Below, in pieces: positions 32,521 through 59,757 of a stretch of DNA of 59,804 nt. Every line of letters starts with the position of its first letter. Positions within the stretch are counted from its first letter, which is position 1. The notes under the pieces were generated by a model that saw only the letters and a list, made by a program, of their open reading frames with translations, had not been told where the DNA came from and searched no databases. The DNA is from Minisyncoccota bacterium (GTDB taxonomy: Bacteria > Patescibacteriota > Minisyncoccia > Phycocordibacterales > UBA918): contig JALHRC010000006.1 of NCBI GenBank assembly GCA_022841645.1, positions 1 to 59,804 of the forward strand. Reading direction: 5' to 3'. The position numbers and the translations under genes were made by a program.

Positions 32521-32524
32521 TTAG

Positions 32525-35024: not shown

Positions 35025-35047
35025 GACAGATTTGTTATACTAGAGGG

Positions 35048-35629
35048 ATGAAATACGCAATTTTTATTCTACTCGTTGTTGCGATTGGCGCTGGTTTTGC
35101 AAGTACCCTCCTTGTTAACCCAGCACCCGCTACACCGCCAGTTGAAGAAGGGGTCATGTGCACCCTGGACGCCATGATGTGTCCTGATGGATCATATGTA
35201 GGAAGGAGCGGTCCGAATTGCGAGTTTGTCTGCCCACCAGCACCAGTGGTGCCAGAGGATGTGCAAGCGCACATTGATGCCAAGACAGACCTGATCACCC
35301 TCGCAAGTCCTGTCCCCGGCGCGTTTGTTACGTCTCCCCTTACCCTCACAGGGCAGGCTCGGGGGAATTGGTTTTTTGAAGCATCGTTTCCGATTACTCT
35401 GGTTAACTGGGACGGGTTAATTATTGCCGAGAGCTATGCCACTGCCGAGGGTGACTGGATGACCGAAGATTTTGTGCCGTTCTCCGCCACGATCGAGTTC
35501 GAGAACCCTTACCCGCCAGGTGGCCCCGATTTTATGAAGCGCGGAGCCGTCATTTTGCAGAAGGATAATCCATCAGGGCTTCCCGAGTATGATGATGCAG
35601 TCGAGATCCCCGTTTTGTTTGCACAATGA
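35048..35629 (+). CDS. secreted protein with Gmad2-like immunoglobulin-like domain
   Basis: It has a signal or TM segment and a Cys-rich linker. SPLTLTGQARGNWFFEASFPITLVNWDG...FVPFSATIEF resembles Gmad2. Confidence 0.55.
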   Translation: MKYAIFILLVVAIGAGFASTLLVNPAPATPPVEEGVMCTLDAMMCPDGSYVGRSGPNCEFVCPPAPVVPEDVQAHIDAKTDLITLASPVPGAFVTSPLTLTGQARGNWFFEASFPITLVNWDGLIIAESYATAEGDWMTEDFVPFSATIEFENPYPPGGPDFMKRGAVILQKDNPSGLPEYDDAVEIPVLFAQ

Positions 35630-35649
35630 TGTAATTGTACGTGAACTCT

Positions 35650-35922
35650 ATGCACGAGACTGATCCAGTAGAAAGAATTGAAACCATGGTGCGGGGCCTC
35701 AGCAACCAAGCGGAACGCTATACCAAGCCGGCCCGTAAGCGCTACCCACTGCTCTTTGCGTTTCTTTTCACCTTTAGCGCCGCCGCCATTTTTCAGGGGT
35801 TTGAAATTTTTGCTAACCAGGTGCCGTTTTTCCAGGAGCATCCACTCGGCCTCATGGCAGGTGGCATTCTTCTATTGCTTTTCACCGGCAGTCTCTATAA
35901 GGCGTTACATAAGCCTGACTAA
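35650..35922 (+). CDS. small two-TM membrane protein, hypothetical
   Basis: It has two hydrophobic helices (LLFAFLFTFSAAAIF, LMAGGILLLLFTG). Confidence 0.45.
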   Translation: MHETDPVERIETMVRGLSNQAERYTKPARKRYPLLFAFLFTFSAAAIFQGFEIFANQVPFFQEHPLGLMAGGILLLLFTGSLYKALHKPD

Positions 35923-36226
35923 GTGTGCATACCCTGCTGTTTGTGTGGGATGGTGAGTTATATACTAGAAGTACCCGAAGGTAATTATGATATCCATGAG
36001 CACTACCGCTTAAAAAACTGCTGACGATTATTTAGTTAAGAAATTTGTCTATGGCCAAAGGACGCGATATGCGTAAAGAGAAGAAGAAGCCAAAGAAAGA
36101 TAAGGGTAAATAAGGAGGCCGCAGGCCGACTATATTTCCCTTATGCAGGCGCCTCGCTACTTTTGAGCATCAAAGCGACAAAAGTAGCGGCGGCGAGCTG
36201 CTAAGTTGGGAAAGTAAGCGAAGACA

Positions 36227-36259
36227 AAAAGCGGGCGGGCCTTGGGTCCGCCCGCTTTT
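36227..36259 (+). terminator. intrinsic terminator
   Basis: gcgggcgg pairs with ccgcccgc, followed by tttt. Confidence 0.8.
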
Positions 36260-36299
36260 GCTATGGAATGAGTGCGGTAAGTAGTGTACAGTAGCGCGC

Positions 36300-37790: not shown

Positions 37791-37832
37791 AGAACACACC
37801 GCTCGCTGGTTTTGCCAGCGAGCGGTGTGTTC
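37791..37832. terminator. bidirectional terminator, 19-bp perfect stem
   Basis: agaacacaccgctcgctgg-tttg-ccagcgagcggtgtgttct. Confidence 0.85.
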
Positions 37833-37843
37833 TTCCGTGTCTT

Positions 37844-38566
37844 CTATAAACTGTCCAGAATAATGCTAAGGTCAGCGATTGAAACCCGACCGTCACTGTT
37901 TACGTCCCCGCTCAGGTCGCCGGTGATCATGTGTTGCATCAAAATACTGACATCGGCGATCGACTGTTTGCCGTCATCGTTTAAATCGATCGGTGTCTCT
38001 TTTGGTGAAATAACCACATCTGCAGTAGGACTCGTAATGGGCGTGGCCGGTGCTACGTCAGCGGTGATAGTAAAAATTGCTTCGATGGGGGTGGCAAGGG
38101 GAGCATCGGTACCCAGGCCGTCGTGCTGGAGAATCTGCGCACTTATAATCTCGACGCTACTCTCGCCTGGTCCCTTACTGCGGAAGGTGATAGTGATGAG
38201 ACTACCTTCGCCCGTAAAGCCACCAGGCCGCGTGCTCCCACCAGCAAAGGTGACGGTCCCGTCACCATTTTCATACCACGGCGTTTCAGCCCACAGGTCG
38301 GCAATTGAGTTGTTGTAGTCGATGCTCGCGACCTCGAGTCGTTCGGGGTTGAAGGTCACCGTTCCGGCGAAGGCATTAACAGGAATCGGCGAGATTACTA
38401 TCACGTCCACAATTATTTCACCGCCCTCAGTACTGACTGCGCGGTCAGGAGAGATAGCCATGCTGGCTCGCTCACCGTCGTCGACCTGCAACATGTAACT
38501 GCCAAGCCCAATAAAGGCGGCAATGACACCTGCAATAAGTAACCGACTGCCCGGAATGGCGAACAT
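37844..38566 (-). CDS. membrane-anchored cohesin-domain protein with C-terminal dockerin-like repeats
   Basis: An N-terminal TM helix is followed by a cohesin-like beta domain (FAGTVTFNPERLEV...GEGSLITITFRSKGPG). The tandem Ca-binding repeats are DLNDDGKQSIADV and DVNSDGRVSIADL. Confidence 0.65.
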   Translation of the reverse strand: MFAIPGSRLLIAGVIAAFIGLGSYMLQVDDGERASMAISPDRAVSTEGGEIIVDVIVISPIPVNAFAGTVTFNPERLEVASIDYNNSIADLWAETPWYENGDGTVTFAGGSTRPGGFTGEGSLITITFRSKGPGESSVEIISAQILQHDGLGTDAPLATPIEAIFTITADVAPATPITSPTADVVISPKETPIDLNDDGKQSIADVSILMQHMITGDLSGDVNSDGRVSIADLSIILDSL

Positions 38567-38643
38567 ACATCTATTATACTACACCGTTGTTTAGTGGAGG
38601 TGTAAATAAACGTACAAAGAAGTACTGCCGTAAACGTCAATTT

Positions 38644-39357
38644 TTAATTCGTGTGAATGGGGGTGATTTTGCGGCGTACAACGAGAGTGACTACGAGCGT
38701 GATGAGGAATAGTACGACTGAGGCCACGAGGCTGTAGGGATTAATAGCACTCATGGTGAAGCCGTCGCGCAGGAGGGTGGGTACGTCAATTGCTGCACCG
38801 AGCGCGGTGAGCGTGGCGACACCGGGAAGAATCCCCAGCGCTGTAGCGGCCATAAACGGACGAACGCGCATCTTAAGGAGTCCCGCACTTAGATTCACCA
38901 CATCAAACGGAAAGTAGGCAAGGCGCATAAAGAGCATGGTGAGAAATGGCTCGCGATGGAGTGGTAGAGCAAAGCGCGTAATAAAGCCGGGTAATTCGTT
39001 CACGGTAAGGTAGCGGCCGGTCCAGTACACGAGCGCGGCTGAGAGCATGGCGCCGATAAGCGTGTAGAAGTACCCCAGCCAAAAACCAAACAAGGCACCA
39101 GCGAGAATGGTAAAGATGGTGCTCGGCAAAAATAAGTAGGGCTGGATGAGGTACAGCGCGATGTAGAGTAAGGGGGCGAGCGTGTGTGTAGAAAGAAAAT
39201 CTGAAATGGACTCAAATAATTCCACCAATGTGAGGCCGCTTCGATAAGCAATAAAGTAGAGGGCGCCAATGACGGCGAGCCACGTGAGGGCGGCACCATA
39301 CTTAATAGTAGAGAGAAGCGGCAGGCGTAGTCGAGTAGGAGAGGAGAAATTTCGCAT
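38644..39357 (-). CDS. DedA / TVP38-TMEM64 family membrane protein
   Basis: 237 aa, polytopic, with SNARE-associated-like topology and GxxxG-rich helices. Confidence 0.6.
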   Translation of the reverse strand: MRNFSSPTRLRLPLLSTIKYGAALTWLAVIGALYFIAYRSGLTLVELFESISDFLSTHTLAPLLYIALYLIQPYLFLPSTIFTILAGALFGFWLGYFYTLIGAMLSAALVYWTGRYLTVNELPGFITRFALPLHREPFLTMLFMRLAYFPFDVVNLSAGLLKMRVRPFMAATALGILPGVATLTALGAAIDVPTLLRDGFTMSAINPYSLVASVVLFLITLVVTLVVRRKITPIHTN

Positions 39358-39443
39358 AGCTCCACTCTACCGCAACGACTGTTGGCGTGGTAGAGCGGGC
39401 TATGGCATAGACGCTCCCCACTCGAGTGCGTACACTAGTAGCT

Positions 39444-40844
39444 ATGTCAGTTACTCCTACAATATCTATCCCGCCCACAGCCATTGTGATACTTGGCGGC
39501 ACGGGCAATTTGGCCGAGACCAAGCTACTGCCAGCGCTGTTTGATCTCTATATGCGGGGTGCTCTCCCGTCGTTTTTTATGATCGTGGGCGTCTCACGCA
39601 AGGCGTGGGGTGACGTTGATTATCAACGTTACGTGACAGAAGCAGTGTCGCTCGCCCGACCGCATGCTTCTACCCGCAGCGTTACGGCGTTTGCCTCTCT
39701 TGCTCGTTTCAGACGCGGGGATTTTGATGACGCGCTCACCTACGCCGCGCTCGGGGAGGCTCTTTCTGAGATCGATCACCTCCTTGGTATGTGCACCAAC
39801 ACGCTTTTTTACTTGGCCGTGCCACCACTGTTTTACAGCACCATTTTTGCAGAGCTCTCTGCCTCCGGTCTCATGGACCGTTGTAAGGGAACTACCTGGT
39901 CGCGCCTTCTTGTAGAAAAACCGTTTGGTCGGGATCTCGAAACGGCCATCGCACTCGAGGCGCAACTGCGCGAACAGTTTTCGGATGAACAGGTATACCG
40001 CATCGACCACTACCTCGCTAAAGACGCGATTGAAAATATTCTGGCGCTGCGTTTTGGTAATCAGGTGCTCGCCGACTCATGGCGTAAAGGGGGAGTGGCT
40101 ACACTTTCCATCCGACTTCTCGAACACAAGGACGTCTCAACCCGCGGCTCTTTTTACGACGGCATTGGCGCCTTGCGTGATGTGGGGCAAAACCACCTTC
40201 TCCAAATGCTCGCGCTCCTGACTATGCCACCTACCGACGTGCGTGATGTGGAGGCTATGCGCGCGGCGCGAGCAGAGATTATCGAGGCGCTTGCGCCCCC
40301 GACACATTTTGTACGGGGGCAATATGATGGCTACCGTGATACTGAAGGAGTATCACCCGATTCAGCAACTGAAACGTACTTCAAGCTGACGACCAGCCTG
40401 TCTACGCCCGAGTGGAGTGGTGTACCGATCACTTTAGAGGCAGGCAAGGCACTCGGTGAAGCACGGGCGGATGCGGTCGTGCGGTTTGCTGGAGGGCAGC
40501 AGTGTCATTGTGGTGTTGAAGGTACCGCTCACACGCACGACAACGAGCTCACTATCACTATTGCACCCGAGCAGCGCATCACCCTTCGGTTGTGGGTAAA
40601 GCGACCTGGGTTTGACTATGTACTAGAGCCGCGTGATCTGGAGCTGGTTCACCAGAGTGCCACCGATCGTTCGTCCCCTGAAGCCTATGAGCGAGTACTC
40701 TATGATTGTATTTTGGGCGATCAAACACGTTTTGTGAGTGCGCGCGAGGTAACAGCCGCTTGGCGTTTTATCACGCCACTGCTTGCAACAGCCACACCAC
40801 CCCTCGTCTACACCCCTGGTAGTAGTGGTCCAAAGGCCGCATAA
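39444..40844 (+). CDS. zwf: glucose-6-phosphate 1-dehydrogenase
   Basis: It has ILGGTGNLA and RIDHYLAKD motifs. ATG at 39444 was chosen (GTG at 39426 is possible). Confidence 0.93.
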   Translation: MSVTPTISIPPTAIVILGGTGNLAETKLLPALFDLYMRGALPSFFMIVGVSRKAWGDVDYQRYVTEAVSLARPHASTRSVTAFASLARFRRGDFDDALTYAALGEALSEIDHLLGMCTNTLFYLAVPPLFYSTIFAELSASGLMDRCKGTTWSRLLVEKPFGRDLETAIALEAQLREQFSDEQVYRIDHYLAKDAIENILALRFGNQVLADSWRKGGVATLSIRLLEHKDVSTRGSFYDGIGALRDVGQNHLLQMLALLTMPPTDVRDVEAMRAARAEIIEALAPPTHFVRGQYDGYRDTEGVSPDSATETYFKLTTSLSTPEWSGVPITLEAGKALGEARADAVVRFAGGQQCHCGVEGTAHTHDNELTITIAPEQRITLRLWVKRPGFDYVLEPRDLELVHQSATDRSSPEAYERVLYDCILGDQTRFVSAREVTAAWRFITPLLATATPPLVYTPGSSGPKAA

Positions 40845-40851
40845 TAGAGAC

Positions 40852-41781
40852 ATGAAGCACACAACAATTGGGTTTGTGGGGCTCGGACGGATGGGTCTCA
40901 ACATGGCAGCGCGTCTTATCGACACCGGAGTGACGGTGGTTGGGGTGGATGAGAGTCTCACGGCGCAAGCCGCCGCGCAGGACGGTGGTGTGCACGTGGT
41001 GTCCGATCTTTCAGTGCTCATCGCTCGTTTACCGGCACCGAAAGTGGTATGGCTCATGGTGCCGAGTCGCTATGTCGACGACGTGCTCGAGGGCCTCACG
41101 GCGCAACTTTCTGCGGGTGACATTGTGATTGATGGGGGTAACAGTTTTTATGAGGATACCCTGCGCCGCTATAAAGAATTAGGGAAGCATGGCATTCGTT
41201 TTCTCGACGTGGGCACCTCAGGTGGCGTCGCCGGTGCGCGCGAAGGAGCAGCGCTCATGGTAGGCGGTGAGAAGGAAACGGTGGCCGAGGTAGAGTCGCT
41301 GTTTCTCGCCTTGGCAGCGAAAGACGGCTACGCGCACGTCGGTGGTCCTGGCGCCGGACACTTTGTAAAAATGGTTCACAATGGTATTGAGTACGGCATG
41401 ATGGGGGCTTTGGCGGAGGGGATGACCGTTTTGCATACCCATACGTCGCAGTTTGATCTCAGCCTTGAAGCAGTGTTGCGCCCCTACGAACACGAAAGCA
41501 TTATTGCTGGAAAGTTGGTCTCGTGGTTGCGGCAAGCGTACGACGAAAAACAGCTCGATCAGATTGCTGGTGAGGTACCTCGTGGCGAAACGGAAAGTGA
41601 GATGGAGCATCTCTCAAGTCTTGGTGACATGCCGGTCCTTGAGGCAGCACTTGCGCAGCGGCAACAAAGTCGCGAGGATCCCTCGTATACGGGCAAGGTA
41701 ATTGCCGCCCTGCGTAATCAATTTGGCGGACACAAAGTTATCTATTCGGAAACCAATGAAGATAGTAACGGACAAGAATAA
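40852..41781 (+). CDS. gnd: 6-phosphogluconate dehydrogenase, short decarboxylating form
   Basis: It has a GLGRMGLNMA Rossmann motif. About 310 aa, YqeC-like length. Confidence 0.88.
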   Translation: MKHTTIGFVGLGRMGLNMAARLIDTGVTVVGVDESLTAQAAAQDGGVHVVSDLSVLIARLPAPKVVWLMVPSRYVDDVLEGLTAQLSAGDIVIDGGNSFYEDTLRRYKELGKHGIRFLDVGTSGGVAGAREGAALMVGGEKETVAEVESLFLALAAKDGYAHVGGPGAGHFVKMVHNGIEYGMMGALAEGMTVLHTHTSQFDLSLEAVLRPYEHESIIAGKLVSWLRQAYDEKQLDQIAGEVPRGETESEMEHLSSLGDMPVLEAALAQRQQSREDPSYTGKVIAALRNQFGGHKVIYSETNEDSNGQE

Positions 41782-42454
41782 TCCGGCCGCACGGGCGGGT
41801 GAGCTCCTCTCGGACGCTCTCAATGCGGGCGGGGCAGAACCCACGTTACTCCTTCTCGCGGGTGGTTCGGCATTGGCCCTGTTGTCGTATGTGAAGGGCT
41901 CCGCACTACCCTCGCGTTTTACGGTCGGTATGCTCGATGAGCGTTATAGCACTGACACGAAAGTAAATAACTATGCGCAGCTTATGGAGAGCGCGTTTTA
42001 TGCTACCGCGGCGGCGGCCAGTGCAACGTTTATAGATTCCCGCTCACGTCTTAGTGAGCCGGCCGCCGCCGTGGCCTCGCGCCTTCACGACGCTCTTACT
42101 GCCTGGCGCCGTGGCAATCCCACTGGCCGGGTCATCGCCACCTTGGGCATGGGTCCCGACGGCCACACCGCTGGTATCTTCCCTGGCTTTGTAACAGTAC
42201 TTAGCAAGCGTGGTCAGTGGGTGGAGGCGTACGAAGTCCCTAAAGATATACACGAATACACGACCCGCATTACCGTCACCCCGCATTTCCTTACGACCGA
42301 GGTGAACCACGCCGTCGCCTATGTAGTAGGAAAAGACAAACATTCCGTACTCGCCACGCTTACTGCACATCCTCCCGACCCCGAGCTCCTTCCGGCTGCG
42401 CTGTGGTATCAAATACCAAACGTCACTATCGTCACCGATCTATTGCTATCGTAA
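41756..42454 (+). CDS. pgl: 6-phosphogluconolactonase
   Basis: It has a GMGPDGHTAGIFPG motif. It overlaps the gnd 3' end by 26 nt. Confidence 0.85.
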   Translation: MKIVTDKNNPAARAGELLSDALNAGGAEPTLLLLAGGSALALLSYVKGSALPSRFTVGMLDERYSTDTKVNNYAQLMESAFYATAAAASATFIDSRSRLSEPAAAVASRLHDALTAWRRGNPTGRVIATLGMGPDGHTAGIFPGFVTVLSKRGQWVEAYEVPKDIHEYTTRITVTPHFLTTEVNHAVAYVVGKDKHSVLATLTAHPPDPELLPAALWYQIPNVTIVTDLLLS

Positions 42455-42612
42455 TGGCCGTTCTGCGTATTGCCGTTTTGGGGTAATTACCGTATAGTAC
42501 TCGCGTTTTGCCGCGATTTATTTTTGCGGTTTTCTTTTCTACGAGCGCGTGAGCGACGGTGTAAAAGAAGGTGTACAAACAATTACTTCATTAAATACGT
42601 AGTTATATAGTT

Positions 42613-44781: not shown

Positions 44782-44859
44782 GCCGACGTATGTCTTTTGC
44801 GGATCTTGTGAGCTATCTTTGTGAGCGAAGCGAAACAAAGTAGCCACAAGGTGTACTGG

Positions 44860-45068
44860 CCGCTGTAAGCGGTGAAGGATGTGGAAGAAGAAGCCTAAGT
44901 AGGCTTCGCCCATATCCGGCAAGACCTTTTGAGCTCGTTTGCCCGAAGGGGAAAACGAGCCAGAAGGCTAAAATAATCTGGGAGATTATTTTAGAAGGTT
45001 GACAGCTACTTTGAAAAAGTAGCGACAACCTGAACAGCGTCTGTAAGACGGACAGCTTCTGTAAGAAG
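44860..45068 (+). other. array of seven short hairpins (candidate structured RNA / 3' UTR)
   Basis: Stems lie at 44860-72, 44890-907, 44933-60, 44968-94, 45005-23, 45038-50 and 45056-68. Three have the identical loop TGTAA and two have a GAA loop. Confidence 0.6.
44872..44898 (+). repeat. pseudo-copy 2 of the fusA 3' end (VKDVEEEA-stop)
   Basis: gtg aag gat gtg gaa gaa gaa gcc taa compares with fusA 44755-44781, gta aaa gac gtt gaa gag gag gcc taa. All six differences are synonymous third positions. Confidence 0.85.
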
Positions 45069-45092
45069 AAAGACGTTGAGGAAGAAGCCTAA
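45069..45092 (+). repeat. pseudo-copy 3 of the fusA 3' end (KDVEEEA-stop)
   Basis: aaa gac gtt gag gaa gaa gcc taa has three differences from fusA, all synonymous third positions. Confidence 0.85.
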
Positions 45093-45116
45093 ATCAGCTT
45101 TCAGCAGTGGACTAGT

Positions 45117-45152
45117 AAACAGCGGGCGGCCCCTTGGGGCCGCCCGCTGTTT
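45117..45152 (+). terminator. intrinsic terminator closing the fusA unit
   Basis: aaacagcgggcggcccc pairs with ggggccgcccgctgttt. Confidence 0.8.
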
Positions 45153-46039
45153 ACGAGCCCCACCACCACACCCGCGTGGTCTCTACCGCGCGGGTGTGGT
45201 GATCATAAAACAAGTGCCGGCGGTGGCCAGATCTTCTACTGGCAAACTACCCCCGATCCTGTGCTCTTGGTACAGGGTAGTTTACAATTAGCCCACCATC
45301 TCTTAGACTTTAGGCTAGTGACGAAAACGTTCAGGAGGGAAAATGTTTAAGCCGTTTCCGTGTCACATTACCCCCCCCAAGAGTTCATGGAGGAGCGTAA
45401 TAAAGCGCGAAACATCGCGCTTGGCTGGACGCTCCGTGAAAGGCGCGGCCTTTTGGCGGTGTGGCCGGAGCTCAGTTACGCCCTGATTCTTCTACAGAGG
45501 GCTATCGTGAGGTGGTGTAGATGAATAAAAACGACCCCTCGAAGCAGCGAGCATTTCTGGCGGGACTCAGAAGAGCTGCCAGCAAGCTCGTGGCTAGGTG
45601 CCAACAAAATCCGAGATTCGCAAGGCTGCTGCTCAAGAGCCTTGCGCCGAAAGAGCCAAGAAAGCTACGATGGCGAAAGAAATGAATAGCGGTCGGCAGG
45701 TTCCCCTAGAAGCAGGGAGCCTGCCGGCCGCTCTAATGTTTGACTCCCATCTTCCATCCACAAACGTATCCTTGCATGGTCTGTGTGGCCCTGAATTATC
45801 TGTGTCCTCTAGAGCAAGCGACAGCTTGCATTTGCTGGCTGCTTTCTGTACTATTCCCACACCGTCACGTCTCCCCCAGTGGGTGGTCTCGTGAAGGAGC
45901 GACCATAATTGCTCTTTTACACGCTGGAGTGTGAAGTCTTCGCGCGCCTGTTCTCGCGCCGCGGCGACTCTACACTCACCACGTTATTCGTGGGAGGCTG
46001 TGAACGGTACTTATTTACCCTTAGTAGCAGTCTTTTAGT

Positions 46040-47618: not shown

Positions 47619-47625
47619 ACCAACA

Positions 47626-47677
47626 GCCCGACATACCAAAACACCCCTACCAAGGGGTGTTTTGGTATGTCGGGCTT
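47626..47677 (+). terminator. 23-bp perfect-stem hairpin directly after rpsJ
   Basis: agcccgacataccaaaacacccc (47626-48) pairs with ggggtgttttggtatgtcgggct (47655-77). Only a short T tract follows. Confidence 0.65.
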
Positions 47678-47741
47678 TACATAAATTCCTTGATAGTTTA
47701 CGTTACATCCGAAAGCACCTTCACAGAGCAGGAGAACTACC

Positions 47742-48155
47742 ATGCCAACGCTCACATTGAACCTGGAAGTAGATGAGGAGCTTCCCCGCCTTCAAGCGTT
47801 ACAATTTGTCAGGGATCCGGTGCGAAAACGACGCGTCGGTACTCGTGTACCACTCGTCGGGGCTGGATTACTCGGGCCACTTAAACTAACTGATCACGTT
47901 AGGGCACATTTGGAAACGGTGCTCGAGGCCATGAATAGATGGTCGCCGGAAGCTGCGCCAACAAAAATACTCGACTCTATTCTAGCGAATGGAAATAGAC
48001 CAATAGATGGGGTTATCCAAGGGTATGCCGTAGATCATTTGCGGGAAGAGCTCAATAGGGCCCTGCCTGAAGTGGGGCTTCGTTTCTCACTTCCACACCA
48101 CGGGCATAAAACCCAGTTGTGGGTTCGAGAGGTTAAAAGGTCGAAAAGAGGCTAG
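47742..48155 (+). CDS. orphan hypothetical protein inserted between rpsJ and rplC
   Basis: 137-aa ORF with a canonical SD (AGGAG, 7-nt spacer). It uses AGA, AGG, ATA and CTA codons. No motif. Confidence 0.6.
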   Translation: MPTLTLNLEVDEELPRLQALQFVRDPVRKRRVGTRVPLVGAGLLGPLKLTDHVRAHLETVLEAMNRWSPEAAPTKILDSILANGNRPIDGVIQGYAVDHLREELNRALPEVGLRFSLPHHGHKTQLWVREVKRSKRG

Positions 48156-48377
48156 TTGCTACCGCTATTTTGTACAGGGGCTATGTGCGATCAAGGGTGT
48201 CTTCGGATACACTTCGTGACAATACGCTGGTGGGGGATAACCCATGTGATACGCTTTTTGCAGAGCATCCCGTTTCCTCTGCGTCTAGCGTTGCGAGATT
48301 GATCGCATGTACGGGCTAATACCGCTCATATGGTCTTCGGATCAAAGCCAATTGGCGCCAGCCTCTGCCCACCCCTT

Positions 48378-48412
48378 TGGGTCCAGCTATACTACGCTGG
48401 ACCCCTTTTCTT
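48378..48412 (+). terminator. intrinsic terminator
   Basis: gggtccagc-tatactac-gctggaccc followed by cttttctttat. Confidence 0.8.
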
Positions 48413-48540
48413 TATCTAACCGAGGGCCACTTGCCCTTTTTTAAATATCGTGTAGAGTTGCGGGCAACGTATATAAGACCTACGTCCCCCCAAAAAATAT
48501 GAGGCTAATTACCTCGGGGAACCAATGGGCAGATGCACTT

Positions 48541-48582
48541 CCGCGGCTTCGTGGGGCACTGTCCCTGGGCCGCGGTTTTGTG
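48541..48582 (+). promoter_or_regulatory. attenuator-like hairpin + T-run in the rplC leader
   Basis: ccgcggc (48541-47) pairs with gccgcgg (48569-75), followed by ttttgtgt. It lies 113 nt upstream of the rplC ATG. Confidence 0.5.
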
Positions 48583-48612
48583 TACACACATTTATTTCCT
48601 ATAAGCAGCTAT

Positions 48613-48698
48613 TCATCCCGTTAGAAGTATTTCTATCTGGATGAGGTAACCAGCACCACGATTAGTATGATTATCAATAATAACTTCTAACGGGATGA
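48613..48698 (+). promoter_or_regulatory. 16-bp perfect long-range stem sequestering the rplC start codon
   Basis: tcatcccgttagaagt (48613-28) is the exact reverse complement of acttctaacgggatga (48683-98), which contains the ATG at 48695. Confidence 0.55.
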
Positions 48699-50386: not shown

Positions 50387-51250
50387 ATGAAATTCTATAA
50401 ACCAACCTCAGCCGGCCGTCGTGATGGCTCGGTGATTGAGTACAAAAAGAAACTAACGTCGACCAAGAGTGAGCCCCACAAGCGTCTTGCCCATGGCAAG
50501 CGTTCGACGGGTGGACGCAACAACCAGGGACGTACCACGAACTTCTACCGCGGCGGTGGCGAAAAGCGCCTCTATCGTGAGGTGGACTTCCGCTACGACA
50601 AGAAGGGTGTGCCAGCGCGTGTCGAGACCATCGAGTACGATCCTAACCGTTCTGGTTTTATCGCGCTTGTGCTCTACCGTGATGGTGAGCGTCGCTACGT
50701 GCTCGCTCCCCAGGGCCTTAATAAGGGTGACGAGATGTTGACCGCCGAAGATGCCAAGCCAAAAATTGGTAATCGTCTCCCGCTCTCAGCGATCCCCGTT
50801 GGTGCCTTTGTGTACAACGTGGAGGTGAAGCCAGGGAAGGGCGCCCAGCTCGCCCGCAGCGCCGGCAACTACGCAGAAGTAGTAGCACACGACGGTGCCT
50901 ACACTCTCGTGAAGCTCCCTTCGACCGAAATCCGCAAGGTTCTCGGCACCGCCTGGGCTTCGATCGGAGCAGTCAGTAACGAAGAGTACCGCCTCGTTGA
51001 TCTTGGTAAGGCCGGTCGTGCCCGTGGCCGTGGACAGCGCCCAAAGAACCGTGGTTCTGCTCGTAACGCGGTTGACCACCCACACGGTGGTGGTGAAGGC
51101 CGCAGCCCGCGTGGTCACCGTCGTCAGCGCACTCGCCAGGGTCGCCCGACTGGTAAGGGCCAGAAGACACGTTCGCCAAAGAAGTACTCAAATCCATTTA
51201 TCGTCGAACGCCGCAAGCCGGGTCGCCTCATGCGAAACGGCGGGAAGTAG
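50387..51250 (+). CDS. rplB: 50S ribosomal protein L2
   Basis: 287 aa. It has RNAVDHPHGGGEGR. Confidence 0.98.
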   Translation: MKFYKPTSAGRRDGSVIEYKKKLTSTKSEPHKRLAHGKRSTGGRNNQGRTTNFYRGGGEKRLYREVDFRYDKKGVPARVETIEYDPNRSGFIALVLYRDGERRYVLAPQGLNKGDEMLTAEDAKPKIGNRLPLSAIPVGAFVYNVEVKPGKGAQLARSAGNYAEVVAHDGAYTLVKLPSTEIRKVLGTAWASIGAVSNEEYRLVDLGKAGRARGRGQRPKNRGSARNAVDHPHGGGEGRSPRGHRRQRTRQGRPTGKGQKTRSPKKYSNPFIVERRKPGRLMRNGGK

Positions 51251-51270
51251 GAAGGGGAGAACGAAGGACA

Positions 51271-51315
51271 AAAAGCAAGCAGCGCGGCCCCTTGGGGGCC
51301 GCGCTGCTTGCTTTT
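51271..51315 (+). terminator. strong intrinsic terminator directly after rplB (inside the canonical S10 operon)
   Basis: aaaagcaagcagcgcggcccc pairs with ggggccgcgctgcttgctttt, a 17-bp GC-rich stem plus a T-run. Confidence 0.85.
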
Positions 51316-51497
51316 AGTATTATATTATGTTATAATAAGAACGTACGTCAACCCTAACCAGGGAGGTGACCATGTGTAAACGAATAGGATAATCCTTATT
51401 TGAATTACACGCACCCAGATCTTTCTAAGCTCGACTTCGTCGAGGAGGATGGGGTGCGAACGCAACCCATACTTCCAATGACACGAAGGAGAGTCCA

Positions 51498-52466
51498 ATG
51501 ACCTACAACCAGCCGACGGCTCGCCCGCTTCCCGCCACGCTCCCGGAGTACATCCTCGTCGAGGTGTATCTCTCCGAGTACCGTGGACGGGAACAGTGGG
51601 TCGCCGAGTATCGCCTCGCCTACAACGGCAAGGCGAGCGACTACCTCAAGGTGGTCGTGAACTTCCGGCGTCACCAGCGGCCGAGCGAGGGTTTGTGGTG
51701 GGTGAAGCCCACCACCATGGCCCCGCATCTGTGGTTGGTCTTTGCCGAAGCCTACGCCGAGGCGTCTGACTATCGTGCACCGCCCCCGGTGCGGACTGGC
51801 GATGAGCTCGTGTTGCTGTGGGGCGGTAACGAAAATCAGCGTGTCGCGCACCGCGATGGCTGGACCTTCCGCTTCGGTTCGGTGTGCCCGCTTCTTTTCG
51901 ATGATGAGTTGTGGCGGGTGCAGGTCGAGCGAATCGACCCGAGCCGCGGTTACATCACCGTGTCGTCTCTCGGGCCTGATCCTCGGGCAGTGGAGCAGCT
52001 GACGCGGCCGATCGGCTACGTCGGCATCTACTCGCTTGACGGTGAGCTCCTCGTTGAGGGGAATGTCTGCTACTCCCACTTCGAAGGAGGGGCGGGAAGG
52101 GTGGATGGCGAGTCAGAACTTGGGCGTCCGTTCCAGGTCAAGGTCGAGTATATGCGGCGGCATAACAACCGCCTCATTGGATCGGTCCTTATCTTGAAGG
52201 ACTTCCAGTCCGAGGCTCGTCTCGCCGCCGAACTGGTGCTCATCGAAGGGCCGCCCGTGCCCTTCGCCTCGAATGATTCGGTGGTGAGTTCTGCATCTAT
52301 GCGGACCATCTCGAAGCCACCGTTCGAGGTGGAAGACAGTGACGACCGTGACCACTACGACGACGACATCGTCCGCCGTGAAGAGATCGAGAACTCCGAA
52401 CGGCCGGAGGTCGACTACGACCCCGAGGACGTCGAGCGCTACATCTACGGCGCCGACGAAGACTAA
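51498..52466 (+). CDS. orphan protein with acidic C-terminal tail, inserted between rplB and rpsS
   Basis: 322-aa ORF with an SD (AAGGAGAG) and very GC3-rich codons (25 of the first 30). The tail is EDSDDRDHYDDD...YDPEDVERYIYGADED. No motif recognised. Confidence 0.7.
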   Translation: MTYNQPTARPLPATLPEYILVEVYLSEYRGREQWVAEYRLAYNGKASDYLKVVVNFRRHQRPSEGLWWVKPTTMAPHLWLVFAEAYAEASDYRAPPPVRTGDELVLLWGGNENQRVAHRDGWTFRFGSVCPLLFDDELWRVQVERIDPSRGYITVSSLGPDPRAVEQLTRPIGYVGIYSLDGELLVEGNVCYSHFEGGAGRVDGESELGRPFQVKVEYMRRHNNRLIGSVLILKDFQSEARLAAELVLIEGPPVPFASNDSVVSSASMRTISKPPFEVEDSDDRDHYDDDIVRREEIENSERPEVDYDPEDVERYIYGADED

Positions 52467-52502
52467 GACTAGGGCCTGAGCATGCCCGACTACTACTGCT
52501 CA

Positions 52503-52538
52503 CGCCGGACACCCACGTGGTGCTCCGGCGGTTTTTTT
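52503..52538 (+). terminator. intrinsic terminator
   Basis: cgccgga pairs with tccggcg, followed by seven T. Confidence 0.8.
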
Positions 52539-52539
52539 A

Positions 52540-52584
52540 AGGTACTGCATTAAATACGTATTTAATGCAGTACCTGCTTTTTTT
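52540..52584. terminator. 36-bp perfect palindrome followed by T-run (second tandem terminator)
   Basis: aggtactgcattaaatacgtatttaatgcagtacct (52540-75) is followed by gcttttttt. Confidence 0.75.
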
Positions 52585-52727
52585 GTGTAATTTTGCATAC
52601 TTATTATCTTGTGCTACATTTTCCTTATGCACGTTCGTGCTTCATTCATTAAGACCATTACCAAGAAAATCCGCCTCGGCGGTGCACTTGCGTGATGGTA
52701 CAGTGACGAGACGGACGACGACACGCA

Positions 52728-52757
52728 TGAAAGCCCCGCCACGATAGTGGCGGGGCT
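52728..52757 (+). terminator. hairpin immediately upstream of the SD of ORF 52788
   Basis: aaagccccgccac-gata-gtggcggggcttt followed by ccgttcttc. Confidence 0.55.
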
Positions 52758-52787
52758 TTCCGTTCTTCAAATCAGGGAGGAAGTGAG

Positions 52788-53240
52788 ATGGATGGTTCCG
52801 ATTATCCGCAATCACCACACGACTGGAGCCTGGCTCGCACTGCGACCGAGCGGCCAGTGTTGCTAAGGCTTGCGCGCCACCCCGACCGAGGAGTGCGGCT
52901 CGGCTTACTACACAACATCCTTGTCGACCCGCCGTGGGCCGACGCCATAGCGCGGCTTGAACTGAAGTCGGCGGGGAACGAACTGCCGCTTGTGCGTCGC
53001 GAGGTGGCGCGCAGCCGCCGCGTGTCGCCCGAGCTCCTCTGCGAGGTGGCGCTGTGCGGCGAGTGGGAGGTGTGGGCGATCGTACTCCATAACCCCGAAT
53101 GTCCGCACACCGTGCTCGAGATTATCGTCTCGTTTACGAGCGCCGACGCTGCGGTAGTGCGTGAATATGCGTACCTTGTCTCGCGTGCTAAGGAGATCAT
53201 CAAGGAACGCGCGAAGGCTGCACCAAGCCGCGCCCCCTAG
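52788..53240 (+). CDS. HEAT/leucine-rich-variant-like repeat protein (tentative)
   Basis: 150 aa with an SD (GGGAGG). It has repeated helical units (LLRLARHPDRGVRLGLLHN; VRREVARSRRVSPELLCEVA; VWAIVLHNPECPHTVLEII). It is GC3-rich. Confidence 0.6.
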   Translation: MDGSDYPQSPHDWSLARTATERPVLLRLARHPDRGVRLGLLHNILVDPPWADAIARLELKSAGNELPLVRREVARSRRVSPELLCEVALCGEWEVWAIVLHNPECPHTVLEIIVSFTSADAAVVREYAYLVSRAKEIIKERAKAAPSRAP

Positions 53241-53251
53241 GGGGCGCGGCT
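53226..53251 (+). terminator. hairpin with the ORF stop codon in its loop
   Basis: agccgcgcccc-ctag-ggggcgcggct. Confidence 0.55.
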
Positions 53252-53283
53252 AAACTGTTTTGAGTTCGCTGCATCACCATCTC

Positions 53284-53303
53284 TTACTATCATGCATGAT
53301 AGT
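53284..53303. repeat. 20-bp perfect palindrome
   Basis: tactatcatgcatgatagta. Confidence 0.85.
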
Positions 53304-53363
53304 AGTAGTTCGTCATCGGGTAAAAAATCTTTTCTCTGCATGCTTGCATCGGGTTTGTTCGCT

Positions 53364-53403
53364 CATAGTCGACCGTTATCATATATGATAACGGTCGACT
53401 ATG
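53364..53403. repeat. 40-bp perfect palindrome
   Basis: catagtcgaccgttatcatatatgataacggtcgactatg was checked base by base. It lies just downstream of the minus-strand ORF 53435..53746. Confidence 0.9.
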
Positions 53404-53434
53404 GTTGGGTGAAGTTTTAATAGATCACTGCGCG

Positions 53435-53746
53435 TTATTGACCGGGTTTTCGCTCACGGGCGGCGAAGGTGAAGTGACTCAGTCGCTTGGCTTGTTTAAG
53501 AGCGGTAAAAGTTGCCCTTGCGTCATCTGTGGTATGTACCGCCACCTTCTGTACCTCTTGGCCGGAGATAATCAGTTCCATCCCAGCGGTGGTATAGACG
53601 GCCGTGACGTGACGTTTACTGGCGTTCCGCTTACCGTCGATAATCCCCGGCGCGATCATTTTGATACCAGAAAGTTTATACAACTCTGCCACCACCTCTT
53701 TGGCAGTGTCGGTGAGGGTGCTGTGCGATCGGCCACGGTATTTCAT
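53435..53746 (-). CDS. hypothetical protein encoded antisense to the ribosomal cluster
   Basis: 103-aa ORF with more protein-like composition than the overlapping + ORF 53405..53755. No confident motif. Confidence 0.5.
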   Translation of the reverse strand: MKYRGRSHSTLTDTAKEVVAELYKLSGIKMIAPGIIDGKRNASKRHVTAVYTTAGMELIISGQEVQKVAVHTTDDARATFTALKQAKRLSHFTFAARERKPGQ

Positions 53747-53783
53747 GGCTTTTAATTGTAACGCCTGCTGGCCATCCCAGCGG

Positions 53784-53812
53784 TTGACACCCTCTTTAAT
53801 TTCTATTAGTAT
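53784..53812 (+). promoter_or_regulatory. sigma-70-like promoter for the rpsS...rplE unit
   Basis: TTGACA (53784-89), a 17-nt spacer, then TAGTAT (53807-12). It lies 169 nt upstream of rpsS. Confidence 0.5.
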
Positions 53813-53980
53813 TGCCGCGTTCCAATCCCCGTGTCGGGTCCATAGCTATGGGCCCGCTCCAGAGAGAAGTAGTAAGTAGAAGCGTGTGGGAACCTCTTAT
53901 AAGAAAGGCCGTTACCTTTTTTTGCGAGAGGTCCTCACCTCACCACCTCACTAAGGTGGATTTATACGTAAGTTAAAGGC

Positions 53981-54331
53981 ATGTCACGATCACTCTATAA
54001 AGGACCGTACGTGGATGAGCGTTTGCTCAAAAAGATCGCCGGTAAGAAACCCGGAGAGAGTGGTGTCATCAAGACCTGGTCGCGCGACGCAATGATCGCA
54101 CCGGAAATGGTTGGCTTCACCTTCGGCGTACACAACGGCAAGACGCACCTCGAAGTAATGATTATGGAAGAAATGGTAGGACACCGCCTCGGCGAGTTTT
54201 CTCCCACCAAGAAATTCCATCGTCACGGCGGTAAGATGCAGAAGGAACTTGAACAGAAGAAGCAGGAAGCTGAAATCGCCGCCGCCAAGGCTTCGAAAGC
54301 TGCTCCCGCCGCTCCCGCCAAGAAGAAGTAA
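53981..54331 (+). CDS. rpsS: 30S ribosomal protein S19 with Lys/Ala-rich C-terminal extension
   Basis: [12 protein letters not shown]...GHRLGEF.PT is the S19 signature. Confidence 0.97.
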
Positions 54332-57590: not shown

Positions 57591-57626
57591 TTTTGCTCAT
57601 CGGCTGATGAAAGAGTGATGTAGAGG

Positions 57627-57660
57627 AAGAAAACCCGCTAGTGATGGCGGGTTTTCTTTC
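57627..57660 (+). terminator. intrinsic terminator directly after rplE
   Basis: gaagaaaacccgc pairs with gcgggttttcttc (13 bp). Confidence 0.8.
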
Positions 57661-57770
57661 ATATGCACCGCTACTTTACATAATCGGTGAGAGGTGTAGG
57701 CTTTTCTCGGGCTCGTTTTTTGTAACCGCAACCGCAAAGGCCGACGTCTGTCGGCAAGGGGATACACCTC

Positions 57771-58490
57771 ATGATGCTGGAAGAGCGAGTGGAAGAGCGA
57801 CTCGTGACGGCGCTCGACTTTCCAACGCCTGCGAGCTGCATCGCTTTTTTCGAACTGGAAGGAAAACTGATTTCACCAGGTGCTTTCGACCCTTTCCGGC
57901 GCGGGAAACCACTGGTCGACTTTGGTTCACGCAGCCTCGTCTCGAGTGGTCTCCTGGCAGGGGAGATGTACGTGCGCTACTGCGCCCTAGAGAAGGTCAG
58001 TGCGCAGAGTGCCCTGCGCTCGCTCGCCCTCAACCTCGATCATAGCCCCGGCTTGGTGGCGCTCGTCCTCGAACTCTGCTATCTCACTCATCGGCGCTCA
58101 CCCCACCTGCTCACCGGCGGAGAGTTGCGGCGTCTCTATGCCGACATCTACCTCAGCAACTTCGCGAACCTGCGCATGGCCATGTACGATACGTGGGGTA
58201 TGCCACCACCGCAGTTTCGTTGGCGGTCGTCCGGGAAATGGATGGCTATGGGTAGCCGTACGGCGTGGCGGAAGCGGCTGGGGCACGATGTGCTCATCAG
58301 TCCATTCACACAACGGCGGCGTAGTAGTCGGCAGTTTGCGCCGTTTCGAGATCGGCAGGGATGGCTCGAGTTGGGTGGAGTGCGTGGCCAGGGACCCGGA
58401 GCGGATCTCTACTTTCGCCTCACCTCAGGCGACACCGCTTTCTATCGCGGATTCCCCAGCCGCGCGGCGTATCTTCCGGAAACGGAGTGA
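57771..58490 (+). CDS. orphan hypothetical protein where rpsN/rpsH would be expected
   Basis: 239-aa ORF, Arg/Trp-rich in its C-terminal half, with no motif. The alternative-frame ORF 58000..58506 looks less coding-like. Confidence 0.5.
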   Translation: MMLEERVEERLVTALDFPTPASCIAFFELEGKLISPGAFDPFRRGKPLVDFGSRSLVSSGLLAGEMYVRYCALEKVSAQSALRSLALNLDHSPGLVALVLELCYLTHRRSPHLLTGGELRRLYADIYLSNFANLRMAMYDTWGMPPPQFRWRSSGKWMAMGSRTAWRKRLGHDVLISPFTQRRRSSRQFAPFRDRQGWLELGGVRGQGPGADLYFRLTSGDTAFYRGFPSRAAYLPETE

Positions 58491-58511
58491 GCAGAAGGAG
58501 GGATGAACATC

Positions 58512-58545
58512 AACGCCGGTCAGACCTTCAGGTCTGACCGGCGTT
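58512..58545 (+). terminator. intrinsic terminator-like hairpin
   Basis: aacgccggtcagacc-ttca-ggtctgaccggcgtt. Confidence 0.7.
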
Positions 58546-58555
58546 CCTACTTGCT

Positions 58556-59011
58556 ATGTTCGATATTTTGGTACAGCATTCATCGTGTATGACAATCTTG
58601 TATTCAAATAATAAGGCTGACCTAGAAGGCAAAATTATAAGTGATTTCTTTCACGGGTGGCCGAAGCCCCCGAGTACAGAGGTGCTTATAAAGAGTATTG
58701 AAAGCGCGGATTTTATAGTGCTAGCTATCGATACTGATACTCAGCAATTAGTGGGATATATCACCGCCATCTCAGATAACGTTCTGTCAGCGTACATCCC
58801 CTTTCTTGAAGTTATTCCGGCGTATCAAAAGCAGGGGATTGGTCATGAGCTGGTACGGCGTATGCTGGAGCAACTCGAGCACCTCTACATGATTGATCTT
58901 GTGTGTGACAAAGAGTTGGCCGGCTTCTACGCAGATGCGGGCCTCGTGTCAGGGCACGCAATGATCAAGAGAAATTACGCTAATCAGGCTGGGGTGGACT
59001 TAGGGACTTGA
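58556..59011 (+). CDS. GNAT-family N-acetyltransferase
   Basis: It has motif A, YQKQGIGHELVRRML. Codons are AT-rich (GC3 in 11 of the first 30). The start may be ATG 58589. Confidence 0.8.
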   Translation: MFDILVQHSSCMTILYSNNKADLEGKIISDFFHGWPKPPSTEVLIKSIESADFIVLAIDTDTQQLVGYITAISDNVLSAYIPFLEVIPAYQKQGIGHELVRRMLEQLEHLYMIDLVCDKELAGFYADAGLVSGHAMIKRNYANQAGVDLGT

Positions 59012-59086
59012 AACAAGGCCACGTTTATTTGCACAATAGAGTAATATATGTTATGATATACACGTAGCTCTTTCAAAAATCACGCA

Positions 59087-59140
59087 GTTTGCCATAGCGG
59101 AAAGTGTCTTATTTTTAGGTCATTCTCCGCTATGGCAAAC
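59087..59140. other. 15-bp perfect inverted repeat upstream of ORF 59149
   Basis: gtttgccatagcgga (59087-101) pairs with tccgctatggcaaac (59126-140). Confidence 0.7.
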
Positions 59141-59148
59141 CCACAGAG

Positions 59149-59757
59149 GTGGTCAGGCCCGCTGGCAAGACAAAGGAACACCCCGTGAAGAACGGAAACA
59201 CCCTTCCTGTCGGCCTATTCGCTAACTTTGCGGCGATGGTCATGAAGGCATTGCCTCGCGACCTCCCGCCCGCAACTGCCCAATACTGGGCACTGAATGG
59301 TGAAGTGTTGACTGTGGTGCTGACGAAGGCACTGAGGACCACGCCGCTTGACCGTGTCATCGACTGCGATGCCGACCCCTTCGTTCCCGACGGCTGCAGG
59401 GTCGAAGAGCACAAGCAGGGCGGACAGTTCACCTTCGACCGGTCGCAAATCGAGTTCTATCTCGATGACGGCCAGAAGAATGGGAAGTACATCATGGGCG
59501 ACAAGCTCCGTGAGCGGCTGGCCGACAAGCCGTGCCTCAACGCCAACGTCCTCGACTACCTGCTTGCCAATCCACACCTCATTCCCGATGAGTGGAAAGG
59601 CAAGTACATCTACTTCTGGGGGACGACTTACCGCGACTACGATGGCGACCTGTGCGTCCGCTACCTCCACTGGTGCCGCGACAGGTGGGGCTGCGACAGC
59701 AACTTGTTTGCGGACGAATGGGGGCGCGACGGTCCCGCCGCGGTGCGTGCAAGTTGA
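59149..59757 (+). CDS. conserved hypothetical protein with C-terminal IPDEWKGK...FWGTxYRDxDGxLCVRYL motif
   Basis: 202-aa GC3-rich ORF. From memory, the C-terminal block resembles an uncharacterised family recurrent in CPR and other metagenomic genomes. The start is uncertain (GTG 59149 or GTG 59185). Confidence 0.6.
   Translation: MVRPAGKTKEHPVKNGNTLPVGLFANFAAMVMKALPRDLPPATAQYWALNGEVLTVVLTKALRTTPLDRVIDCDADPFVPDGCRVEEHKQGGQFTFDRSQIEFYLDDGQKNGKYIMGDKLRERLADKPCLNANVLDYLLANPHLIPDEWKGKYIYFWGTTYRDYDGDLCVRYLHWCRDRWGCDSNLFADEWGRDGPAAVRAS

Follow-up and report, generated by a model that had tools for sequence, protein, structure and literature searches.

Few gene orders in prokaryotes are as conserved as that of the ribosomal-protein genes, which is commonly used as an anchor in phylogeny and binning. 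The question raised by the locus described here is why rplB and rpsS of the S10 operon are separated by 2.7 kb in a Minisyncoccota bacterium. The stretch of DNA analysed (the window) comprises positions 1-59,804 of contig JALHRC010000006.1, and all coordinates refer to it. In the window, rplB (uL2; 50387-51250, + strand) is the final gene of the rplC-D-W-B unit and forms the left conserved flank of the gap, and rpsS (uS19; 53981-54331, +) is the first gene of the rpsS-to-rplE unit and forms the right one; rplB was taken from the list of open reading frames (ORFs), and rpsS from this list and related loci. Three ORFs lie in the gap, together with a promoter and numerous hairpin terminators. An earlier note on this DNA had correctly placed the ORFs at 51498-52466 (+; ORF1), 52788-53240 (+; ORF2) and 53435-53746 (-; ORF3) and had taken them for a self-contained, compositionally foreign module. 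Our analysis indicates that the interval is probably an ancient, lineage-wide break of the S10 operon in a subclade of the Paceibacteria/Parcubacteria, with a fixed framework and independent cargo. The framework would have three parts: a terminator after rplB, the DUF2103-family gene ORF3, and a conserved promoter with a structured leader RNA that restarts transcription at rpsS. The two spacers flanking ORF3 would be permissive hot spots for the gain and loss of unrelated genes that almost always run in the direction of the adjacent transcription, and the rplB-side spacer of the window would hold two independent cargo modules (ORF1 and ORF2), each with a promoter, a conserved 5' leader, a Shine-Dalgarno (SD) site and a terminator.

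ORF3 is transcribed against the operon and encodes a basic protein of 103 amino acids (pI 10.2). It matched the Pfam family DUF2103 (PF09876) with 29.3 bits (cut-off 22.4, E 8.6e-7) over profile positions 7-87 of 98, and the family was recognized in 119 of 120 aligned relatives (E <= 0.01). The three genes had been described as unrecognisable, which does not hold for ORF3; neither ORF1 nor ORF2 has an above-threshold match. More than 146 relatives of ORF3 with 56-80% identity were found, with source labels Patescibacteria or Paceibacterota. Scanning a single genome for each GTDB species and placing the ribosomal genes by tblastn yielded 80 species loci, whose source genomes are labelled Nomurabacteria, Kaiserbacteria, Paceibacteria, Parcubacteria and similar. 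rpsS lies divergently upstream of the antisense ORF3 homolog in 72 of the 80 loci, rplB lies convergently downstream in 50, and both are present in 46. No violation of order or strand around the ORF3 homolog occurred in the 80 loci, and almost all misses were at contig or flank limits. In 50 related loci, the rplB found on the corresponding side of the ORF3 homolog is 68-88% identical to that of the window, and the identical antisense rplB-ORF3-rpsS layout was present in six metagenome loci fetched via ORF1 or ORF3 relatives. ORF3, presented in the earlier note as part of the foreign module, is conserved at the same position and in the same orientation in the genomes of 80 related species, an outcome that the note itself had named as counting against its reading.

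The mean identity to the window protein over 43 species was 58% for ORF3, compared to 54.5% for rplW, 72% for rplV, 74% for rplB and 81% for rpsS. Fourteen residues (R4, G5, H8, L11, T12, T14, G34, I36, T48, G55, G62, Q66, K67 and H71) are invariant across 120 relatives. The protein is single-domain and cysteine-free, and its invariant residues include two histidines, H8 and H71 (the DUF2103 name implies a predicted metal-binding site). The AlphaFold model has an α-β4-α-β arrangement (pLDDT 84.9); a Foldseek search gave no significant PDB match (best E 0.05), and the family sequence profile gave no meaningful one. Weak Foldseek matches to eL38 and roadblock proteins were not accepted as evidence, and among PHROG families only a weak 'toxin' match (E 0.033) was obtained. 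Because of the fixed position, the slow evolution and the lack of defence hits, ORF3 would have a housekeeping role, probably related to RNA, and we infer that its product acts as a housekeeping factor associated with RNA or the ribosome.

Another fixed element is the promoter with leader RNA upstream of rpsS. The promoter TTGACA-17-TAGTAT (53784-53812, +) had been regarded as a fresh promoter for rpsS. TTGAC(T/A) -17- (G/C)GTA(T/C)T(C/A)T boxes occur in the same place in 49 loci, and promoter and structured leader are found throughout the clade; the promoter, like the rplB/rpsS break, is ancestral. The leader of the window (53819-53980, +) consists of the 5' motif GUUCCAAUCC, the hairpins P1 (53835-53856), P2 (53887-53937) and P3 (53943-53959), and then AUUUAUACGUAA. 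Across the clade, the 5' motif reads GUUCCAACCUC and P1 varies; P2 is highly conserved and composed of an 11-bp stem, a 5-bp stem and the apical sequence GGCCGUUACC, and P3 is a short GC hairpin followed by AUUUAUACGUAA. This fold was obtained with RNAalifold on 28 sequences, and covariation was tested on 22 sequences. In these, 99% of the cells were paired compared to 43-69% with slid partners, and 28 cells contained double changes compared to 8.2 ± 2.4 in shuffles, with none of the 500 shuffles reaching 28; compensatory changes were found in seven pairs. A covariance model of the leader gave one strong hit per locus in ~48 loci, many of them outside the seed, on the rpsS strand and upstream of rpsS where rpsS is on the contig, and no other strong hit on the rpsS strand in 923 kb. 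Thirteen loci have a shorter leader from which P2 is missing. In searches of Rfam 15 with the rpsS, ORF1 and ORF2 leaders, nothing reached the gathering threshold, matches at E <= 10 were at chance level and none lay over 53813-53980; in the 59.8-kb window as a whole, neither a tRNA gene nor an rRNA was present, and Rfam families reaching the gathering threshold were likewise absent. The segment 53819-53980 has one hallmark of an autoregulatory leader, a conserved and covarying structure in the 5' untranslated region (UTR) of a ribosomal-protein operon. Its likeliest role is that of a putative autoregulatory operator of the rpsS-to-rplE unit, and it is probably the most novel item of the locus. 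Separately, an exact 13-nt direct repeat, CCATCCCAGCGGT, is present at 53578-53590 within ORF3 and at 53772-53784, where it abuts the -35 box of rpsS; by a rough estimate, ~0.1 such repeats are expected by chance in 3.5 kb.

The spacers on either side of ORF3 are variable in both length and content. The distance between rplB and rpsS ranges from 891 to 8884 bp across the species loci (median 3381 bp), and the smallest gaps contain ORF3 alone, 64 bp from rplB and ~235 bp from rpsS. The 235 ORFs of at least 60 amino acids in both spacers of the 80 species loci fell into 159 clusters, 138 of which were singletons. Recurrent cargo on the rplB side includes secreted proteins and PG_binding_1 proteins; on the rpsS side it includes a YdjM membrane protein (14 loci), VapB with VapC (5 loci) and an amidophosphoribosyltransferase-like protein (3 loci). 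PhoH-PIN proteins are encoded in four loci, mostly on the rpsS side, and the gap of metagenome locus L007 carries a MazG protein. In two related loci, the ORF3 homolog is immediately preceded on its own strand by vapBC genes for a MazE-type antitoxin and a PIN toxin (L006, 1600-2555; L009, 7360-8315), and ORF3 may be co-transcribed with them, since the vapC stop codon overlaps the ORF3 start. The same placement was seen in five GTDB loci (L046, L065, L078, L087 and one other). When cargo ORFs of at least 150 amino acids were counted, those on the rplB side shared the direction of rplB in 49 of 54 cases, and those on the rpsS side shared that of ORF3 in 39 of 50. The interval thus has the same flanks and differing content in relatives, which is what defines an accessory-gene hot spot between core genes.

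In the window, the cargo genes ORF1 and ORF2 differ from their surroundings in composition and in translation signals, both of which were scored on the 62 genes of the window. The GC content of the window is ~54%, and the mean GC content at third codon positions (GC3) of the other genes is 0.598 (sd 0.070). GC3 is 0.783 for ORF1 (z +2.6, rank 1 of 62), 0.727 for ORF2 (z +1.8, rank 4 of 62) and 0.592 for ORF3 (z -0.1), which is native-like. The GC3 bias claimed for ORF1 and ORF2 was therefore upheld; of the hand counts over the first 30 codons offered with it, that of ORF1 (25 of 30) was reproduced and that of rplB was recounted as 17 instead of 18. The GC3 of ORF1 homologs exceeds that of the ribosomal genes in every host checked; for ORF2, the excess is marked in the window and in L013 only. 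An SD site, scored as 5 nt or more matching AAGGAGGTG upstream of the gene, was present in five of the 62 genes, which is near the random-position rate of 4.8%. ORF1 (AAGGAG, the longest match) and ORF2 (GGAGG inside AGGGAGGAAG) are among these five, so that the claim of canonical SD sites that native genes largely lack also stood. The same SD, ACGAAGGAGAGT, occurs in all ORF1 relatives checked, and ORF2 homologs keep SD sites as well. We found no description of SD usage in Patescibacteria, or of a split S10 operon, in the literature. Among the native genes, a -10-like box (TACAAT, TATACT or TATAAT) ends 6-8 nt before the ATG of several first genes, for example upstream of 31188, 29121, 38566 (-) and 53746 (-); read from the sequence, this suggests that leaderless mRNAs may be widespread among native genes.

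The hairpin and promoter scan also recovered the other signals that had been listed for the gap, namely a terminator after rplB, two tandem terminators, perfect palindromes and the TTGACA-17-TAGTAT promoter. The hairpin after rplB (51268-51318, +) has 24-nt arms that are 96% complementary. The tandem terminators of ORF1 (52503-52575, +) consist of a hairpin at 52503-52530 followed by a T-run and a perfect 18+18 palindrome at 52540-52575, again with a T-run, and a perfect 13+13 hairpin (53226-53251, +) overlaps the stop codon of ORF2. The spacer in which ORF2 and ORF3 converge (53273-53403) contains two palindromes, an imperfect one (53273-53316) and a perfect one of 40 bp (20+20; 53364-53403) that has no clear T-run; the segment with the perfect palindrome is absent from L007, since ORF2 and ORF3 are separated by only 23 nt there. 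Six of the 19 long hairpins detected in the whole window fall inside the gap, the others elsewhere. As coordinates, signals, GC3, SD sites and the acidic tail of ORF1 described below all checked out, the observation made in the earlier note is confirmed, and it is supported that the gap region is built of insulated transcription units.

The 322-amino acid product of ORF1 is built from a conserved N-terminal domain (residues ~7-90), another two predicted β-barrels and a disordered linker, and it carries an acidic motif at the C-terminus. The extremely acidic tail reported for this protein is real, with 22 D/E among 48 residues (275-322). Only three close relatives (57-60% identity) were found among 5.8 billion proteins, and a profile search placed the family in 18 clusters among 1.84 billion representatives. 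The N-domain motifs VVVN and WWVKPT and the C-terminal acidic motif EERxNSExPDxD are conserved in the family; short members (~90-160 amino acids) have the N-domain, and several of these also retain the acidic motif. A 476-amino acid protein in related locus L100 (74-1504) has only the ~90-amino acid N-domain (hhalign 96%, E 4e-9) and the leader in common with ORF1, and the C-terminus of the family is therefore regarded as variable and the N-domain as constant. The AlphaFold2 model (pLDDT 83.7) contains three blocks of 5-6 β-strands (residues 1-250), followed by disorder and acidic helices. The best Foldseek matches were the S1/OB proteins RNase II, bS1, RNase R, K3L and eIF2α. Their local probabilities were high (0.96-1.0 for RNase II, bS1, K3L and eIF2α), E values were at least 2.4e-3 and whole-query TM scores at most 0.19, and no PDB or BFVD hit was obtained at E <= 1e-3. 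ORF1 had no match in Pfam (including S1 and SSB), NCBIfam, PHROG or PADLOC, and the family profile had no PDB sequence match. The predicted structure recalls an OB domain followed by an acidic tail like that of SSB, a resemblance that does not establish membership, and the protein may be a putative nucleic acid-binding protein. The close relatives are found between rplB and rpsS (L006, L007), and more distant ones have other neighbourhoods, with Dus in L092, EF-P in L094 and a series of hypothetical genes in L095; P0130, P0132 and P0136 are relatives located outside the ribosomal operon.

Expression of ORF1 could start from a promoter read from the sequence, with a -35 box TTGCTT (51308-51313, +) located in the 3' arm of the rplB terminator and a -10 box TATAAT (51331-51336, +); TTGCTTTT is kept in L007. 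The leader that follows (51340-51497, +) contains an SD (51360-51368), a mini-ORF of six codons (MCKRIG*, 51372-51392) and a CUCGAC/GUCGAG hairpin. At the DNA level this leader (~160 nt) is better conserved than the protein in the window, L006, L007, L092, L094 and L100, even where the relatives are only ~40% identical. A mini-ORF of 6-8 codons follows the SD in leaders of the family (MCKRIG*, MRERIG*, MCSRLLRS* and MRHTTIRR*). The leader segment CUCGACUUCGU can form a local hairpin or alternatively pair with ACGAAGGAGAG, the SD of ORF1, and an SD-sequestering helix was predicted on five sequences. The leader is unusually stable, with a minimum free energy of -53.3 kcal/mol (z = -4.2). It may thus be a putative translation-coupled switch that masks the SD, a reading that relies mainly on sequence conservation, as compensatory changes are few. 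A second upstream ORF before ORF1, starting ATGGGGTGCG, was rejected by manual reading of the aligned leaders, its frame and stop not being conserved. A scan of metagenomes with the DNA pattern of the leader gave four hits that were attributed to chance (three GC-rich and apparently coding, one unrelated and non-coding, none with ORF1-3 relatives), and a metagenome scan with the ORF1 alignment gave no confirmed relatives. In IMG/VR, no relatives of ORF1 or ORF2 and no match to the ORF1-leader pattern were found, so that viral relatives of the cargo genes were not detected there.

ORF2, the second cargo gene, encodes a helical LRV/HEAT-like repeat protein of 150 amino acids. Four relatives were found by protein search and one more (L013) by tblastn, all of them in the rplB-side spacer. 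The recurring motifs hPDxxVRLGLLxN (e.g., HPDxxVRLGLLxN) and EVAxxxxVSxxLL and weak LRV/LRV_2 matches agree with the repeat assignment made earlier, which is tempered by the fact that all matches are below the Pfam cut-off: LRV scored 10.7 bits against a cut-off of 21.6, and the best E values for LRV/LRV_2 among six family members were 0.013-0.019. No above-threshold hit was obtained in Pfam, PHROG, NCBIfam or PADLOC, and a PDB profile search gave nothing meaningful. With three close relatives and 18 clusters for ORF1 and four protein-search relatives for ORF2, the description of these two genes as rare, compositionally deviant, SD-bearing and non-housekeeping held. The idea of a donor among high-GC Actinobacteria gained no support: no actinobacterial relative was found, and the inspected contexts of ORF1 and ORF2 relatives were all of Patescibacteria type.

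The promoter and leader of ORF2 (52593-52787, +) consist of TTGCAT (52593-52598), TACATT (52615-52620), a three-tier stem and a 14-bp terminator hairpin (52729-52760). A small ORF of 22 codons (52627-52695, +; MHVRASFIKTITKKIRLGGALA) is embedded in the stem and is probably leaderless. The leader (~190 nt) is conserved in five loci (window, L007, L009, L013 and L100), in which the TTGCAT/TACATT promoter ends 6 nt before an ORF of 20-22 codons (MHVR..IKTITKKIR.GG..A) with indels in multiples of three. RNAalifold predicted a stem of 10+9+4 bp and then the 14-bp terminator, which ends 10-35 nt before the ORF2 SD; nine of the 45 predicted pairs showed compensatory changes. RNA structure alone may explain the conservation of this leader. 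It would be a putative leader of the attenuator type, in which either the peptide or the RNA fold acts as the sensor. A sub-threshold match to the Rfam family Thr_leader (24.7 bits) is a lead only.

The proposed mechanism for the turnover of cargo in an anciently broken operon is natural transformation followed by homologous recombination in the highly conserved flanks, and translation-coupled leaders would switch on both cargo genes. Natural competence has been reported for Patescibacteria, as has an enrichment of ribosomal-protein genes in their predicted genomic islands (PMC12455944), which fits turnover by recombination in conserved flanks and does not prove it. A gene in the run at 14280-21121 (+), at 19049-19657 and starting MRYPSSHRHGMTLVEVIVVIAI, has a type IV pilin-like N-terminus as judged from its sequence and would fit the competence/pilus machinery reported for Patescibacteria.

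Several points weigh against the reading built on the observed synteny, spacer variability, composition, leader conservation and covariation. The mechanism of cargo turnover is purely inferred: neither an integrase nor a transposase was found (Pfam, PHROG, NCBIfam), the window has no tRNA, and the gap is not bracketed by att sites or direct repeats other than short ones at chance level. The related loci were collected through ORF3, so that clade genomes lacking ORF3 fall outside the sample and the statement that the operon is always split is valid for ORF3-bearing genomes only. Elevated GC3 could be explained by family-specific codon choice instead of foreign origin. The functions of the ORF1 and ORF3 proteins are guesses, as the Foldseek matches are not significant. 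Finally, an ORF1-family gene lies directly upstream of ORF2 in three of ~7 loci, and a functional link between the two is possible.

This last point leads to the alternative that survives best, possible but rather unlikely: that the ORF1-family protein, with its constant N-domain and variable C-terminus, and the ORF2 repeat protein are a functional pair, induced by translation stress and residing in the hot spot. In the window, L007 and L100, an ORF1-family gene and ORF2 are neighbours in the same orientation, although the L100 protein shares only the N-domain and leader; both families are restricted to the same narrow subclade and spacer, and both have SD sites and conserved leaders. However, ORF1 and ORF2 are separable, since each occurs without the other in related loci (L006 for ORF1, L009 and L013 for ORF2). 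In the window, the genes are separated by two strong terminators and a promoter of its own for ORF2, and distant ORF1 relatives have no ORF2 neighbour. L102, in which a 209-amino acid gene follows ORF2, could not be scored for an upstream ORF1 because the contig ends 34 nt upstream of ORF2.

A further possibility, which we regard as doubtful, gives the central part to ORF3. It would be a new component or regulator of the Paceibacteria translation apparatus, P2 of the rpsS leader would serve ORF3, or a ribosomal protein encoded downstream, as the operator for control of rpsS to rplE, and the cargo genes with their translation-sensing leaders would be stress add-ons. If this were true, the most conserved operon of bacteria would have been rebuilt in this clade around a new factor.

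It is considerably less probable that the interval is a toxin-antitoxin or defence islet with ORF3 as an RNA-targeting effector. DUF2103 and a 'DUF2103-like' domain have been proposed as possible effector domains linked to type III CRISPR/Menshen systems (PMC12065111, the only paper found in the literature that mentions DUF2103). In addition, vapBC abuts ORF3 in L006 and L009, VapBC is encoded in five more species and PhoH-PIN in four. Against this, a fixed position and a ribosomal-protein-like rate of evolution over 80 species are not expected of a defence effector. The three ORFs gave no PADLOC hits, no cas or nsn genes were seen, ORF3 stands alone in the window, and VapBC is upstream of it in a minority of the loci.

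The module proposed in the earlier note, that is, one horizontally acquired, self-contained accessory system of three ORFs inserted as a unit into an intact S10 operon, is hardly credible. The GC3 and SD values of ORF1 and ORF2, the terminators and promoter that bracket the region, and the same order of the trio in L007 speak for it. ORF3, however, is native and fixed at this site in the 80 species, the rpsS promoter and leader occur throughout the clade, ORF1 and ORF2 each occur alone and have separate terminators and leaders, and PADLOC gave no hits. An assembly chimera in which the insert was mis-joined into the ribosomal operon has a negligible probability. Nothing specific favours it; the five public contigs with the exact ORF1 measure only ~1.1 kb and leave the junctions uncovered, but the same layout and flanks are present in independent assemblies from other samples (L006, L007, L009, L100 and the 80 GTDB genomes).

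The window contains further interruptions of the ribosomal gene order. The gap between rpsJ and rplC (47619-48694) holds an SD-led ORF of 137 amino acids and ~540 nt of non-coding DNA with hairpins, and downstream of rplE (57591-59757) are an ORF of 239 amino acids, a GNAT acetyltransferase gene and an ORF of 202 amino acids with a GC3 of 0.77. fusA and tuf are 1.3 kb apart (44782-46039), and rpsG and fusA are separated by ~10 kb (32305-42612). In relatives, the gene content at the rpsJ/rplC and rplE/rpsH positions varies as well. As the window genome and its relatives have these further gaps (rpsJ/rplC, after rplE, fusA/tuf), fragmentation of the ribosomal supercluster is regarded as a trait of the clade.

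An S10 operon with a stable antisense gene and two hot spots in a whole subclade affects both the annotation of metagenome-assembled genomes and the calling of genomic islands, and the gap offers a defined locus for studying accessory-gene turnover in ultra-small, naturally competent bacteria. ORF3, with its 14 invariant residues and no PDB fold match, is a defined target in the search for lineage-specific factors linked to translation or RNA. The rpsS leader is a candidate for a new ribosomal-protein regulatory RNA with good covariation, and the ORF1 and ORF2 leaders provide testable examples of translation-coupled control in a genome whose native genes largely lack SD sites.

Compared to known systems, ORF3 and its relatives match the Pfam DUF2103 model, with ORF3 being single-domain, cysteine-free and very basic; unlike DUF2103 domains in CRISPR/Menshen contexts, it is fixed in a ribosomal operon and its neighbours are ribosomal genes and variable cargo. 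ORF1 shares predicted tandem β-barrels, a disordered linker and an acidic motif with OB/S1 binders that have acidic tails (SSB, bS1, RNase II/R), and differs from them in having no Pfam S1 or SSB match, Foldseek E values of 2e-3 or worse and a family of 18 clusters. Its architecture of a constant N-domain and a variable C-terminus is like that of polymorphic proteins. ORF2 is like LRV/HEAT-type helical repeat proteins in its motifs and weak LRV/LRV_2 matches, every one of which is sub-threshold. Genes such as ermC, cat and thrL are controlled by leaders that sequester the SD or act as attenuators. The ORF1 leader has in common with these a short SD-led upstream ORF and SD-masking pairings, and the ORF2 leader a small ORF within a stem followed by a terminator; both differ in lacking homology to known leaders, and their regulation is putative. 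Autoregulatory leaders of ribosomal-protein operons include the Escherichia coli S10 leader with L4, the spc operon with S8 and the r-leader families of Rfam. The rpsS leader resembles these as a structured, covarying 5' UTR right before a ribosomal-protein unit, followed by a terminator-like hairpin; it differs in matching no Rfam family and in preceding rpsS, which is internal in model operons. Accessory-gene hot spots ('islets') between conserved core genes are known from bacterial pangenomes, and with these the gap shares conserved flanks, hypervariable and compositionally deviant content, toxin-antitoxin genes and many orphans. In contrast to such islets, it sits inside the S10 operon, without integrase, tRNA or att site, around a conserved antisense gene, and its cargo is strictly polar in orientation.

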